A stretch of DNA of 50,389 nucleotides from an uncultured Candidatus Saccharibacteria bacterium. GTDB lineage: Bacteria; Patescibacteriota; Saccharimonadia; Saccharimonadales; AWTP1-31. This document shows positions 2,567 through 4,597 of the stretch, piece after piece. The stretch is taken from the NCBI GenBank assembly GCA_964530555.1, contig CAZHBD010000003.1:1-50389 (forward strand). Reading direction: 5' to 3'. The position numbers and the translations under genes were made by a program. Below the pieces are notes generated by a model. It was not told the DNA's origin. It saw only the letters and a program-made list of their open reading frames with translations, and did no database searches. Within the stretch, counting starts at the first letter, position 1. Every line of letters starts with the position of its first letter.

Positions 2567-3541
2567 GTGGCTAGTCAGCAGCAAATCAAAGGTCGCATCA
2601 AGAGCGTTCGCAACACTCGCCAAATTACCAAGGCGATGGAACTGGTTAGCGCCAGCAAAATGCGTAAGGCTCAAGAAAATGCCCTCAAGGGCCGCGACTA
2701 TGCTGCTATGTCCGAGCAACTACTCACGCGCCTACGAGAGATAACCGACGTCAGCAAGCACCCTTTGTTCGAAATTCGTAACGAAGTCAAAGCTCGGTTG
2801 CATGTGGTAGTGACAAGTGATCGTGGTCTCGCCGGTGCCTACAATAGCAGTGTGCTGAAGACCTTCACCAAAGAAGTTCAAGCCGACCGCGACGCCGGTG
2901 TTGACAGCTATACGCTGACCATTGGTCGCCAAGGTAGTAACTTTGCCAGCAAGATCGAACACGTACAGAGCCTGGGTGCTTATACTGACTTCCCTGAACA
3001 CCCGACAGCAAACGATCTTCGTTCGATACTGGATACCGTTATAGCTAGCTTTTTGAAGGGTTCAACGAACCGCAAGCCCGTAAAAGTGTCCGAAGACAGT
3101 GACGCGCCAGTGGTGCCCGAACCAGTTCCGCCAGCTGAGGAACGAGAAGAAGAGCTGCATGTTCCGGCGGTTGATGTCGTAGACGTCATCTACACTGACT
3201 ATAAATCCAGTATTGTGCAAGAAGTCACGAGCCTGCGTTTGTTGCCGGCAGCCTTTACAGAGGTTGAGATTGAGCCGGATCTGGAGCGCGCCGACTTTGA
3301 GCCAAGCGCTACACAGGTGCTGGAATCGGTTGCGCAGCGCCTGATCGAAGCGCAGCTCTATCAGGCCTTACTTGAAAGCATGGCAAGTGAGCAAAGTGCC
3401 CGTATGATGGCGATGAAAAACGCCAGCGACAACGCCAGTGATATCATTGACGACCTGACCCTTGCCTTTAACACGGCCCGCCAAGCAGCTATCACCCAAG
3501 AGTTGGCTGAAATTACTGGCGGTGCGGAGGCGATCAAGTGA
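2567..3541 (+). CDS. atpG: F0F1 ATP synthase subunit gamma, with an acidic/Pro-rich insertion of about 35 aa
   Basis: N-terminal IKGRIKSVRNTRQITKAMELVSASKMRKAQ and C-terminal ARQAAITQELAEITGGAEA hallmarks. GTG start 3 nt after the atpA stop. Confidence 0.93.
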   Translation: MASQQQIKGRIKSVRNTRQITKAMELVSASKMRKAQENALKGRDYAAMSEQLLTRLREITDVSKHPLFEIRNEVKARLHVVVTSDRGLAGAYNSSVLKTFTKEVQADRDAGVDSYTLTIGRQGSNFASKIEHVQSLGAYTDFPEHPTANDLRSILDTVIASFLKGSTNRKPVKVSEDSDAPVVPEPVPPAEEREEELHVPAVDVVDVIYTDYKSSIVQEVTSLRLLPAAFTEVEIEPDLERADFEPSATQVLESVAQRLIEAQLYQALLESMASEQSARMMAMKNASDNASDIIDDLTLAFNTARQAAITQELAEITGGAEAIK

Positions 3542-4170
3542 GTGAAGTTTTTGGCCCTGGTGAGACCCTCAGAGTTAATGCATTGGCGGCTCAGGTGGAC
3601 ACTCATTTCCCACTTGCGGCACCAGGAGGTATTTCAGAAAAAGTTCGTGAATTAATTGACACAGGTCAATTAAGTGAGGCTGCAAACTTACTAGCAAGAC
3701 TAGATTTTGCAGATAGAGCTGTCGCTGAGGAGCTGACCGCTGGTTTACCAGCTTCTGAGGACACAAGCACAGAGGTTCAGGCTTTTCTGCGTGGCTTGTA
3801 TCACGGTAGAGCCGAAGGTGCTCACGTGGTTGAATCCTGGAAAACTGAGCTCGGTCAATTGACTGATCCGGTTGCGTTTGCTGATGCCTTACGAGATCCT
3901 CGTAGCCGACCATCGGTATTGATTCACGAAGCAGCGATTTCGCTCACCGAGAAAGCTTTGCGAGAAGTGCGGATTTACGGTGGCTTTGTGGTTCGAAAAA
4001 TTATGGACCATCGAAAGATTAATGGTCGTGATTCAGCGACGGTGTATGCGGGCGACGCCATCGAGCGTCGAGCTCAGGAAACACTGAAAGATGTACTCCA
4101 TCAGCTTGGATTTTCGGCAACGAGGTCGGCAGACAGGGCAACTAAAGGTAGAATTGACATAAGGAGATAG
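3538..4170 (+). CDS. hypothetical protein (210 aa, basic C-terminal tail) embedded in the atp operon
   Basis: GTG start overlaps the atpG stop (GTGA, 3538-3541). The frame is open to TAG at 4168-4170. No motif recognised. 9 of 21 Arg codons are AGA/AGG, whereas atpD uses CGN only. Confidence 0.65.
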   Translation: MSEVFGPGETLRVNALAAQVDTHFPLAAPGGISEKVRELIDTGQLSEAANLLARLDFADRAVAEELTAGLPASEDTSTEVQAFLRGLYHGRAEGAHVVESWKTELGQLTDPVAFADALRDPRSRPSVLIHEAAISLTEKALREVRIYGGFVVRKIMDHRKINGRDSATVYAGDAIERRAQETLKDVLHQLGFSATRSADRATKGRIDIRR

Positions 4171-4171
4171 C

Positions 4172-4597
4172 ATGATGACGCCATATGAACGAGACCCTGG
4201 ATTGGTGGCAGACGCTACGATGTTTATTGTGAGTGACGTGGTGAGAGTACTTGAAGGCCCAGTTGCCGAGATTGCTGCTCGGCCCCATGCCGACCCACAG
4301 ATACTCGCAGCAGAGATCCTCTACTTGGTTGGTTTTGCTGCTGAGTCAGGGGCTATGGCTGCTTTTTCCGGCGTTGCTGTGGATACCGAACGTGACCGCT
4401 CTGAAGAGATTAGACGGGGTACTTTCCTGGTCTGCAGATTGTTTGATATGTCTGTACCTGAGCTGCCGGATGAGTTGATTGAAGAAGCTAGAGTAGTCAT
4501 AGCAAGGTTTCGTGAAGAGCATGGCACAAACCAGCCAGCGAGCAGTCAGACTCTGCTTGATAAGATATATGATAAAGGTTCTGATAAGGAGAAATAA
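4172..4597 (+). CDS. hypothetical protein (141 aa, acidic) embedded in the atp operon
   Basis: AAGGAGA (4158-4164) lies 7 nt before the ATG. Its TAA overlaps the atpD ATG (TAATG, 4595-4599). No motif recognised. 5 of 11 Arg codons are AGR. Confidence 0.65.

Follow-up and report, generated by a model that had tools for sequence, protein, structure and literature searches.

Two small genes, orf210 and orf141, lie between atpG and atpD in the 50,389-nucleotide stretch of Saccharibacteria DNA analyzed here (the window). They are probably long-standing, vertically inherited occupants of the gamma/beta junction in one Saccharibacteria sub-clade. We give roughly even odds (about 0.5) to the reading that they are passengers of this junction, which would be expressed by a translational relay, would be dispensable and not needed by F1, and would form neither part of the enzyme nor a pair of the toxin-antitoxin kind. 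To judge from its alignments and predicted fold, orf210 is a founding member of a small, fast-evolving, all-alpha family of four members that has not been described before and is absent from Pfam, NCBIfam, PHROGs, PADLOC and PDB. The alpha-gamma-beta-epsilon gene order is among the most stable in bacteria. That this order is repeatedly broken in one phylum by small, mostly acidic proteins, for the most part with the putative translational relay kept, is what gives the locus its wider interest.

Gene layout at the interrupted F1 block

The inserts lie in the one canonical atp operon, made up of genes F, H, A, G, D and C. Its F1 portion contains the following features:

2567-3541, + strand: atpG (F1 gamma, 324 aa; Pfam ATP-synt E=1e-83, TIGR01146 E=6e-86)
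3065-3169 (approximate), + strand: acidic, proline-rich 35-aa insertion in gamma, missing in five close relatives by alignment
3526-3530, + strand: GGAGG Shine-Dalgarno site within the atpG coding sequence, 7 nt 5' of the orf210 GTG
3538-4170, + strand: orf210 (210 aa, GTG start); the GTGA at 3538-3541 overlaps the atpG stop
3778-3843, + strand: most conserved motif of the orf210 family, QAFLRGLYHGRAEGAHVVESWK (residues 81-102), by family alignment
3910-4122, + strand: C-terminal half of orf210 (approximately residues 125-195), EVxIYGGxxVRxIxxHxKINGxD, by alignments
4161-4167, + strand: AAGGAGA Shine-Dalgarno site for orf141, in the final orf210 codons, 4 nt before the ATG
4172-4597, + strand: orf141 (141 aa), whose stop overlaps the atpD ATG
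4586-4592, + strand: AAGGAGA Shine-Dalgarno site for atpD, in the final orf141 codons; the TAATG overlap is at 4595-4599
4597-5976, + strand: atpD (F1 beta, 459 aa; 82-87% identity to Saccharibacteria atpD)
5978-6460, + strand: orf160 (160 aa, pI 4.7), between atpD and atpC, preceded by a separate Shine-Dalgarno site; no family matched it
6463-6897, + strand: atpC (F1 epsilon, 144 aa; Pfam ATP-synt_DE_N E=4e-18)

The original prediction had two ORFs of 210 and 141 aa filling the atpG-atpD gap, tied to their neighbors by a GTGA overlap, an AAGGAGA before orf141 and a TAATG overlap; the coordinates are borne out, and all three signals are present in the sequence. The last atpG codons (GGAEAIK and the stop) provide both the Shine-Dalgarno site of orf210 and the stop that overlaps its start. 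The atpG C-terminus is kept among relatives, and GCGGAGGC, in the atpG/orf210 Shine-Dalgarno region, is invariant in a junction alignment of four genomes.

The operon also holds a third inserted ORF that had been overlooked, orf160, separated from its neighbors by spacers of 1 nt and 2 nt. The delta subunit is unusually short in this clade, which together with the gamma insertion marks the enzyme as already atypical. At the position of that insertion, the gamma subunit of another genome, L086, carries a different insert of about 30 aa.

A small protein family confined to one site

orf210 encodes a soluble, predicted all-alpha protein with a pI of 6.1, for which AlphaFold models eight helices at moderate confidence (pLDDT 68). 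Its relatives were found only by exhaustive phmmer, a word-indexed protein search having returned self matches alone. They number three (P0003, P0008 and P0004), all from Saccharibacteria; phmmer recovered no further members among 1.84 billion representative proteins, and the family profile had no match among JGI metagenome and viral contigs. Three other large phmmer matches (P0005-P0007) were rejected as repetitive Ig-like or beta-sandwich surface proteins. The description of the locus as an ORFan cassette thus does not hold for orf210, which has three homologs, and stands for orf141, for which none was detected.

All four family members begin MSE or MTE and, where the context is readable, start on the NTGA that closes atpG. 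orf210 shares this start, and its N-terminal domain carries the family motif GLxxGRxEGAxVVExWK, within which G86, L87, G90, R91, E93, G94, A95, V97, V98, E99, W101 and K102 are invariant in the family alignment. The C-terminal half is present in the 213-aa homologs and missing from the 148-aa homolog, and the basic tail of orf210 is found in none of the three. We also considered that the C-terminal half might be a duplicated gamma C-terminus, on the strength of a FNTARQ match, and rejected this origin (hhalign probability against gamma, 0.04). When homologs were checked for linkage to atp genes, the family proved to be single-copy and was seen solely at the atpG-atpD junction, the opposite of the unlinked distribution that, by the criterion set in the original prediction, would have spoken against accessory subunits.

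Searches against described families were uniformly negative. orf210, orf141 and orf160 had no match in Pfam, NCBIfam, PADLOC or PHROGs, and relaxing the Pfam-A threshold to E up to 1 added none for orf210 or orf141; the orf210 homologs likewise matched nothing in Pfam and PHROGs. A PDB sequence search with the orf210 family profile and with orf141 returned nothing. Foldseek against PDB, using models of moderate and low confidence, gave best E values of 0.59 for orf210 and 0.96 for orf141, and a search of orf210 against a viral library gave nothing under E = 0.6. Pfam and NCBIfam revealed no homology to the core F1Fo subunits (alpha, beta, gamma, delta, epsilon, a, b, c), and neither Pfam-A nor Foldseek against PDB detected similarity to AtpI, AtpZ, Atp11, Atp12, IF1 or zeta.

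orf141 is acidic (pI 4.6) and predicted to be all-alpha, with a low-confidence AlphaFold model (pLDDT 60); the word-indexed search returned self matches alone. An acidic 143-aa ORF occupies the same position in the low-GC genome L166, and no homology between the two could be detected, as their Smith-Waterman score equals that of shuffles and the hhalign probability is 0.2. The second junction gene is therefore unrecognizable between lineages.

Conservation and selection among relatives

The orf210 family occupies the same site in genomes with GC contents of 0.34, 0.48 and 0.53, representing at least three lineages. L166 shares the layout of the window (atpG, the 213-aa P0008, the 143-aa ORF, atpD), and its flanking pieces are 80% (gamma) and 76% (beta) identical to those of the window. 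In L082-L085, the 148-aa P0004 occupies the atpG-atpD junction and overlaps each neighbor by 4 nt; this form has no C-terminal half and no second gene. These four represent one strain with identical DNA and thus carry no information on selection. L166 and L081, by comparison, belong to a low-GC lineage (GC 0.32-0.34) with the family and heavy AGA use; in L081, the 50 nt at the 5' end, ahead of the family member, do not align with atpG. Between these two genomes, the 213-aa gene shows pN of 0.24 and pS of 0.68 (dN/dS about 0.17), and the gene downstream of it shows dN/dS of about 0.18. Both junction genes are under purifying selection in this lineage. Over the longer distance between the window and L166, dN reaches 0.83 for orf210 and 0.21 for the flanking atp pieces. 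A tree built from 150 aa of gamma and beta, all that is available for L166, did not resolve the sub-clade, so a single origin followed by losses is a proposal.

Coding capacity and a predicted translational relay

Spacers range from -4 to +3 nt at all eight junctions from atpF through atpC, and every start from atpA to atpC follows a Shine-Dalgarno site of the GGAG type. Promoter-like and terminator-like sites are not in excess in the operon over shuffles (8 promoter-like sites in positions 1-8000, against 5.9 +/- 2.7 expected), and since orf210 starts inside atpG there is no room for a promoter or operator upstream of it. These features fit the co-translation with the ATP synthase that had been predicted. 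We infer that orf210 and orf141 are read from the atp mRNA, with no promoter of their own, and that ribosomes ending atpG would re-initiate on orf210, then on orf141 and then on atpD, each Shine-Dalgarno site of the putative relay sitting in the final codons of the gene before. An insert would be tolerated only if this relay stayed intact and if its product were harmless at the high expression of the operon.

By ORF length, coding score, Shine-Dalgarno sites and tight spacers, both ORFs read as genuine protein-coding genes. Stop-free runs of at least 210 codons arise in 0.025% of segment shuffles, and the frame-specific codon scores of orf210 and orf141 (0.23 and 0.34 nats/codon) compare with 0.286 +/- 0.074 for window genes and turn negative in shifted frames. 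That one or both ORFs are instead a non-functional, expanded spacer left open by chance is scarcely credible to us. This idea draws on orf141, which has no detectable homolog and a model of low confidence, and on stop-free runs of at least 141 codons, which appear in 1.6% of shuffles. It has to contend with an orf141 coding score above the mean of known genes, with a gap that orf141 fills exactly and with its own Shine-Dalgarno site, with purifying selection on its positional counterpart in L166 and L081, and with the conserved homologs of orf210.

Codon usage points to weak optimization

The original prediction called the cassette compositionally foreign on the basis of its arginine codons. 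The counts were exact: AGA/AGG make up 9/21 arginine codons in orf210 and 5/11 in orf141, against 1/109 in six atp genes. The two ORFs together (14/32) also exceed the remaining window (80/741; Fisher p = 4.5e-6), and orf210 has a GC3 of 0.38 against a window mean of 0.47. The high AGA/AGG share stands; the broader description does not, because other measures fall within the range of the window. GC is 0.49, equal to that of the window, whole-gene codon usage places the ORFs just 8th (orf210) and 6th (orf141) from the bottom among 45, with z of -1.3 and -1.9, and their frame-specific coding score is like that of native genes.

A recent horizontal transfer of the cassette into the operon as a foreign segment is, in our estimate, improbable. 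Beyond the codon bias and low GC3, it could appeal to the low-GC, AGA-heavy lineage of L166 and L081, which has the family, and to L086, where a 759-bp two-gene insert lies between perfect 16-nt direct repeats and insertion at the G/D junction evidently does occur. The window cassette, however, is flanked by no scars or repeats: the longest string common to the end of atpG and the region before atpD is 5 nt (p = 0.96). It contains no mobility enzyme domain by Pfam, and tblastn against phages and plasmids returned no match. Furthermore, the occurrence of the family at the identical site in genomes spanning GC 0.34 to 0.53, and the same contrast in relatives of differing GC, whose junction ORFs have GC3 below that of their own atp genes and, in most, a higher AGA/AGG share, speak against an acquisition read from arginine codons and point to weak codon optimization rather than foreign origin.

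A toxin-antitoxin pair is highly improbable

It had also been proposed that the two genes form a selfish toxin-antitoxin-like pair, one basic and one acidic, hitchhiking on an essential operon. As in type II systems such as Phd/Doc, there are two small, adjacent, tightly packed ORFs, one of them (orf141) acidic, and the Doc toxin is among the top Foldseek matches of the low-confidence orf141 model (3kh2_A, E = 1.5, TM 0.34-0.37). That match is not significant, and direct reading of orf141 reveals no Fic motif. Family, fold, promoter and distribution all fail to support the proposal: nothing was found in Pfam, NCBIfam, PADLOC or PHROGs, promoter-like sites in the operon do not exceed shuffles, and the family is single-copy at one conserved chromosomal site rather than patchy or mobile. 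The sizes and gene order are atypical for such systems, and L082 has the first gene alone, in truncated form. Nor do the proteins make a basic/acidic pair, as orf210 has a pI of 6.1 overall and its basic tail is not conserved. The premise of an essential operon is itself doubtful, given that the cultivated Saccharibacterium Southlakia epibionticum can do without its F-type ATP synthase (PMC10633639). An operon that a cultivated relative does not need makes a poor anchor for addiction, and we regard a toxin-antitoxin role as highly improbable.

Junction ORFs across Saccharibacteria: passengers or F1 partners

Unrelated small ORFs occur at F1 junctions in about 40% of sampled Saccharibacteria-type operons, and many Saccharibacteria besides this one have small acidic ORFs at the A/G, G/D and D/C junctions. 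Among junction ORFs, 30 of 33 (91%) have a pI below 5.5, as compared with 23% of size-matched soluble ORFs from the same loci (p = 5e-11). An NTGA overlap with the atpG stop is present in 10 of the 12 genomes that have a G/D insert, irrespective of the insert, whereas in operons with a tight G/D junction atpG ends mostly in TAA or TAG. The orf210 family has no detectable link to the short G/D ORFs of L002, L003 and L096 or to any other junction ORF. Two further families recur at fixed positions: L003 and L082 share one at the A/G junction (BLAST E = 5e-10; phmmer 2e-11), and L002 and L003 share another at D/C (E about 0.002-0.003).

Several observations favor passengers. The G/D gap is only 11-56 nt in sub-clade members L001, L089, L092 and L095, and L107, with a 160-aa insert, and L109, with a tight junction, are sisters at 100% bootstrap; these contrasts suggest that junction genes are not needed by F1. 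The D/C junction of L100 holds an MFS transporter, the G/D junction of L105 a membrane protein, and many unrelated soluble ORFs are also found at F1 junctions, showing that the junctions accept unrelated genes. We propose that a tolerance filter explains why inserts of unrelated origin are alike in their stop-start overlap and in being acidic and soluble. This tempers the original argument that the packing implies a partnership with F1: the coupling is present, and it is weaker evidence than supposed given that unrelated inserts use the same NTGA overlap.

The competing explanation, which we consider possible while leaning against it, is that orf210 and orf141, and perhaps acidic junction ORFs in general, are lineage-specific accessory or regulatory proteins of F1. 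Such proteins could bind F1 subunits, for example as assembly helpers for gamma or beta, or could control ATP hydrolysis where a respiratory chain is lacking and the enzyme is probably reversed; their translation between the gamma and beta subunits would match their supply to that of F1. The family was seen solely at the atpG-atpD junction, across three lineages from GC 0.34 to 0.53, its start on the atpG stop is conserved, L166 keeps the two-gene layout, and both genes are under purifying selection. This fixed position, coupling and selection would be equally expected of a true F1 partner, and the A/G and D/C families are likewise tied to position. The enzyme is atypical to begin with, and acidic, soluble junction ORFs resemble F1 subunits (pI 5.1-6.0). 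The acidic bias that runs through unrelated families could stem from binding to a shared target and not from a tolerance filter. Against these points stand the close relatives that have tight junctions and no such gene, and the unrelated genes, a transporter included, that sit at the same junctions with the same coupling. orf210 has changed at about four times the rate of the flanking atp pieces, and its partner gene is not conserved; the L082 form dispenses with the C-terminal half and the second gene. Moreover, the proteins have no Pfam or NCBIfam family match and no profile relation to gamma, and their codon usage is less optimized than that of the atp genes. A bolder version, in which orf210, orf141, orf160 and the other small acidic junction ORFs are F1-binding proteins that evolve rapidly and can stand in for one another, either helping assembly or braking ATP hydrolysis, strikes us as rather unlikely.

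These readings differ in what they would mean. Patescibacteria have no respiratory chain, and their ATP synthase is dispensable in culture (PMC10633639, PMC11665869). Inserts that act on F1 would add new regulators or assembly factors to those known for ATP synthase, and an interchangeable F1-binding set would give a reduced, respiration-less lineage a lineage-specific accessory shell encoded inside the operon itself. If the genes are passengers, the locus would offer a natural example of the rules by which inserts survive in a highly expressed, stoichiometrically tuned operon, as well as a site at which new genes gain a foothold.

Comparison with known systems

No account of genes at the atpG-atpD junction of these bacteria turned up in our literature search, and to our knowledge no F1 regulator or assembly factor is encoded there. 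The nearest parallels for non-core genes in an atp operon are AtpI/UncI and AtpZ, which are co-transcribed with the ATP synthase, stand outside the catalytic complex and can be dispensed with by many species. They are small membrane proteins encoded at the 5' end of the operon and linked to c-ring assembly or Mg2+ uptake, whereas orf210 and orf141 are soluble, have no Pfam match and lie inside the F1 block. Roles of the kind that an F1 accessory protein would fill are known from zeta of Paracoccus, IF1, cyanobacterial AtpTheta and Atp11/Atp12, small, mostly helical, soluble F1 binders that block hydrolysis or chaperone alpha and beta; orf210 and orf141 have no sequence match and no significant structural match to them.

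The patchy occurrence of unrelated inserts between highly conserved genes recalls phage morons and free-standing homing endonuclease genes, as do the difference between the sisters L107 and L109 and the direct repeats around the L086 insert. The window cassette departs from these in having no nuclease or mobility domain, no excess of promoter or terminator sites and no adjacent repeat, and in belonging to a cellular operon rather than a phage genome. Finally, in the F1-like ATPase clusters of Mycoplasma (types 2 and 3), likewise a bacterium with a reduced genome, F1 alpha/beta-type genes alternate with uncharacterized, lineage-specific ones. Those clusters are paralogous, stand apart and serve another function, whereas the inserts described here interrupt the canonical and single atp operon.

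Two small genes packed between atpG and atpD

The window, a 50,389-bp contig, has the atp operon at its left end on the + strand; Candidatus Saccharibacteria (TM7, Patescibacteria) MAGs encode atpD products 82-87% identical to that of the window. Two ORFs, orf210 and orf141, lie between atpG and atpD, and a third, orf160, which the original prediction overlooked, lies between atpD and atpC.

Features of the window (position, strand, feature)
74-625, +, atpF
622-1008, +, atpH, short
1010-2563, +, atpA
2567-3541, +, atpG
3538-4170, +, orf210, between atpG and orf141
4172-4597, +, orf141, between orf210 and atpD
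4597-5976, +, atpD
5978-6460, +, orf160, 160 aa, pI 4.7, atpD-atpC junction
6463-6897, +, atpC
6960-7772, +, aquaporin-family (MIP) gene
18162-18236, -, tRNA-Gln(TTG) gene
38271-38383, -, ribosomal protein L10 leader (Rfam RF00557, 62 bits)
42892-45264, -, 790-aa ORF with thymidylate kinase and ThyX (Thy1) domains, which appears to be a Tmk-ThyX fusion

The original prediction was correct in all its sequence statements: the GTG of orf210 overlaps the atpG stop (GTGA, 3538-3541), AAGGAGA (4161-4167) ends 4 nt from the orf141 ATG, and the orf141 stop overlaps the atpD start (TAATG, 4595-4599). Spacers measure -4 to +3 nt at all eight junctions from atpF through atpC, each start from atpA to atpC is preceded by a GGAG-type Shine-Dalgarno site, and promoter-like and terminator-like sites show no excess over shuffle expectation. 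Orf210 and orf141 are packed for translational relay, and we infer that they are transcribed together with the atp operon and translated by re-initiation after atpG. Orf160 has spacers of 1 nt and 2 nt and, like the other two, a Shine-Dalgarno site of its own; it matched no known family, and none of the fetched loci holds a homolog.

Orf210 and orf141 are real genes rather than chance ORFs. In shuffles of the segment, 210 or more consecutive codons stayed free of stops in 0.025% of cases, and a frame-specific codon model fitted to the window's other genes gave 0.23, 0.34 and 0.25 nats per codon for orf210, orf141 and orf160, against 0.286 +/- 0.074 for known window genes (leave-one-out), with negative scores for all three in shifted frames. 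The reading of these ORFs as non-genes is extremely unlikely.

Two F1Fo subunits of the window deserve mention in their own right. The delta (OSCP) product of atpH is only 128 aa and aligns to positions 50-169 of the 172 in the Pfam model; the N-terminal region, normally the contact with alpha, seems to be absent, and close relatives have comparably short atpH matches (about 120-128 aa). Gamma carries an acidic, Pro-rich insertion of 35 aa (about 3065-3169, +) that is absent in five close relatives, and the gamma of another locus, L086 (941-1900), has its own, different insert there, about 30 aa long. Regulatory loop insertions occur in mycobacterial and cyanobacterial gammas as well.

The orf210 family keeps to the gamma/beta junction

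A word-indexed search of 5.8 billion proteins returned only self hits for both ORFs, which had been called ORFans. The term does not hold for orf210, as an exhaustive phmmer run on 1.84 billion representatives and a subsequent profile search recovered three relatives: P0003 (213 aa, E = 2e-19), P0008 (213 aa) and P0004 (148 aa, N-terminal half only). Three further phmmer matches, to repetitive Ig-like surface proteins, were spurious. Neither the family profile, run on JGI metagenome contigs and viral contigs, nor the family HMM, run on all ORFs of the 166 loci, picked up another member.

P0004 and P0008 sit where orf210 sits. P0004 lies at atpG-atpD in L082-L085, which represent one strain (GC 0.53), with 4-nt overlaps on both sides; in this operon atpA and atpG are also separated by ORFs of 183 and 75 aa. 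In L166 (GC 0.34), the end of atpG runs through ATGA into P0008, which runs through a second ATGA into a 143-aa acidic ORF, followed by a 1-nt spacer and atpD. This is the architecture of the window (213 + 143 aa versus 210 + 141 aa), recurring in a distant relative; the end of atpG is 80% identical to that of the window and atpD 76% over 59 aa. P0003 lies in L081 (947 bp, GC 0.32) and precedes a homolog of the L166 143-aa ORF; upstream, L081 1-50 does not align to atpG apart from roughly its final 17 nt, which hold the Shine-Dalgarno site and ATGA; the contig end may be chimeric, or the context may have been rearranged. All four family proteins start with MSE or MTE at one aligned position, and the GGAGG Shine-Dalgarno site, which falls within gamma codons, does not vary. 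Of the two conserved parts of the family, the N-terminal domain is marked by invariant GLxxGRxEGAxVVExWK and the C-terminal half by EVxIYGGxxVRxIxxHxKINGxD; the family profile shows no relation to gamma.

Comparison of L166 with L081 gave pN 0.24 and pS 0.68 for the 213-aa gene and pN 0.21 and pS 0.63 for the gene downstream. With dN/dS at about 0.17-0.18 for both, dS being near saturation, both genes are real and constrained in that lineage. When the window is compared with L166, dN is 0.83 for orf210 versus 0.21 for the adjoining gamma/beta segments, a rate of evolution about four times that of its neighbours.

For orf141 no homolog was detected. It matches the L166 143-aa ORF in position, size and acidic pI (4.6 and 4.8, respectively), but the two sequences are not similar: they score no better than shuffles by Smith-Waterman, and hhalign assigns a probability of 0.2.

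The pair had also been likened to a basic/acidic toxin-antitoxin module. The last 20 residues of orf210 do include six K/R, but this basic tail is confined to the window, its three homologs having acidic tails; orf210 as a whole has a pI of 6.1. Structure prediction gave all-alpha models for orf210 (eight helices, pLDDT 68, four-sequence alignment) and orf141 (pLDDT 60, single sequence), and Foldseek found nothing significant in the PDB or a viral library. Doc toxin was among the best orf141 matches (E = 1.5, TM 0.34-0.37); there is no Fic motif, and we do not count this match as evidence. The pair is not recognisably toxin-antitoxin, mobile or foreign, and a toxin-antitoxin identity is very unlikely.

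Many Saccharibacteria lodge diverse small genes between F1 genes

We measured junction lengths in atp operons fetched via atpD (one genome per species) and via gamma (metagenomes), of which 26, including the window and L166, were Saccharibacteria-type (gamma at least 41% identical). Gaps above 200 nt occur in 11 of these 26 at atpG-atpD, 7 at atpA-atpG and 10 at atpD-atpC. Such gaps are rare in the remaining loci, where several exceptions are other Patescibacteria. Tight Saccharibacteria operons also exist (9/56/8 nt in L089 and 5/11/14 nt in L092 at the three junctions), and the sisters L107 and L109 (100% bootstrap, 150 aa) differ by recent gain or loss, with a 160-aa ORF after atpG in the former versus a 5-nt gap in the latter.

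Most inserts are unrelated to one another, with only three small homologous groups among them, one being the orf210 family. A second position-specific family occupies atpA-atpG, comprising the 183-aa ORF of L082 (1063-1834) and a 187-aa ORF of L003 (3999-4562; E = 5e-10 by BLAST, 2e-11 by phmmer); the third, common to L002 and L003 at atpD-atpC, is weak (E about 0.002-0.003). An MFS transporter occupies the atpD-atpC junction of L100 (8317-9720; Pfam MFS_1, E = 3e-49), showing that the F1 block can accommodate genes of unrelated function, and its sister L097 likewise has a gap of about 2 kb, holding comparable ORFs (8869-10240). One insert (L105) is a membrane protein, and all other inserts lack a Pfam family above the curated threshold.

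What the inserts share is acidity and the stop-start overlap. Thirty of 33 junction ORFs (from L001-L004, L081, L082, L087, L090, L091, L094, L096, L102, L105-L107, L110, L166 and the window) have a pI below 5.5 (median 4.75), against 23% of size-matched, non-hydrophobic ORFs from the same loci (Fisher p = 5e-11, the count being slightly inflated by ORFs homologous to each other). Whatever the insert, it starts on an NTGA overlapping the atpG stop in 10 of 12 genomes bearing one at atpG-atpD; the gamma stop in tight operons is mostly TAA or TAG. L086 carries a different two-gene insert of 759 bp (178 + 74 aa) after atpG between perfect 16-nt direct repeats, GGGCGGAGGCCATGAA, which resemble a scar left when a recent insertion duplicated the coupling signal.

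Direct repeat of L086
1881-1896 and 2640-2655, two copies, each holding the gamma end, Shine-Dalgarno site and ATGA overlap

Codon usage probably reflects weak optimisation

The pair had been described as compositionally foreign on the basis of its Arg codons. The counts were right (AGA/AGG 9/21 and 5/11, versus 1/109 in the six atp genes), and the excess is real against the window's non-atp genes (14/32 vs 80/741; Fisher p = 4.5e-6), but foreign origin is unsupported. Cassette GC is window-like (0.49), and whole-gene synonymous usage is unremarkable, with z = -1.3 for orf210 and -1.9 for orf141 (8th and 6th lowest of 45), the window's atp genes lying at the optimised extreme (mostly z +2 to +3). 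Junction ORFs of L082, L002, L096, L003 and L004 have GC3 below that of their own atp genes whatever the genomic GC, and AGA/AGG use above it in most cases. The likeliest cause of the contrast is weak codon optimisation beside highly optimised genes. No repeats flank the cassette, and it has no phage or plasmid matches. That the family occupies a single site in genomes whose GC is 0.34, 0.48 and 0.53 speaks for its age rather than recent import, and recent transfer is improbable. Elsewhere in the window, the ORFs at 36395-36880 (+; GC 0.35 versus 0.48 for the window) and 39876-40436 (+), which lack Pfam matches and have the most atypical codon usage (z -2.8 and -3.5), are better candidates for foreign DNA on compositional grounds.

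Passengers or F1 accessory proteins?

We favour inherited junction genes carried as passengers, at a probability of about 0.5, because a single insertion followed by inheritance would by itself yield a conserved position, and because overlap and acidity fit a survival filter. Such a filter would yield both shared features, since an insert must keep ribosomes reaching atpD and be harmless at high dosage.

That these are lineage-specific F1 accessory proteins is possible, though we think it less likely. Strict conservation of position, coupled translation, purifying selection and the acidity common to junction ORFs and F1 subunits (pI 5.1-6.0) would all suit such a role. The genes are nonetheless absent in close relatives and evolve fast, the partner gene is not conserved, the L082 form is truncated and stands as a single gene, and the same junctions with the same coupling also hold unrelated genes, including a transporter. 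Moreover, ATP synthase is dispensable in a cultivated Saccharibacterium (PMC10633639).

Comparison with known systems

Full-text searches yielded no description of atpG-atpD genes in Saccharibacteria or other Patescibacteria; reviews go no further than calling the role of ATP synthase in this group unresolved (PMC11665869). Closest in kind are AtpI/AtpZ, likewise extra operon genes, but these are membrane proteins whose genes lie at the 5' end. The next nearest are the soluble helical F1 binders zeta, IF1, AtpTheta and Atp11/12, which act as regulators or chaperones and, to our knowledge, are not encoded at the atpG-atpD position. By sequence and fold the pair matches none of these families. 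Orf210 represents a new small protein family at a fixed operon address, alongside a tendency, seen at the level of the phylum, for small acidic genes to settle between the genes of F1.
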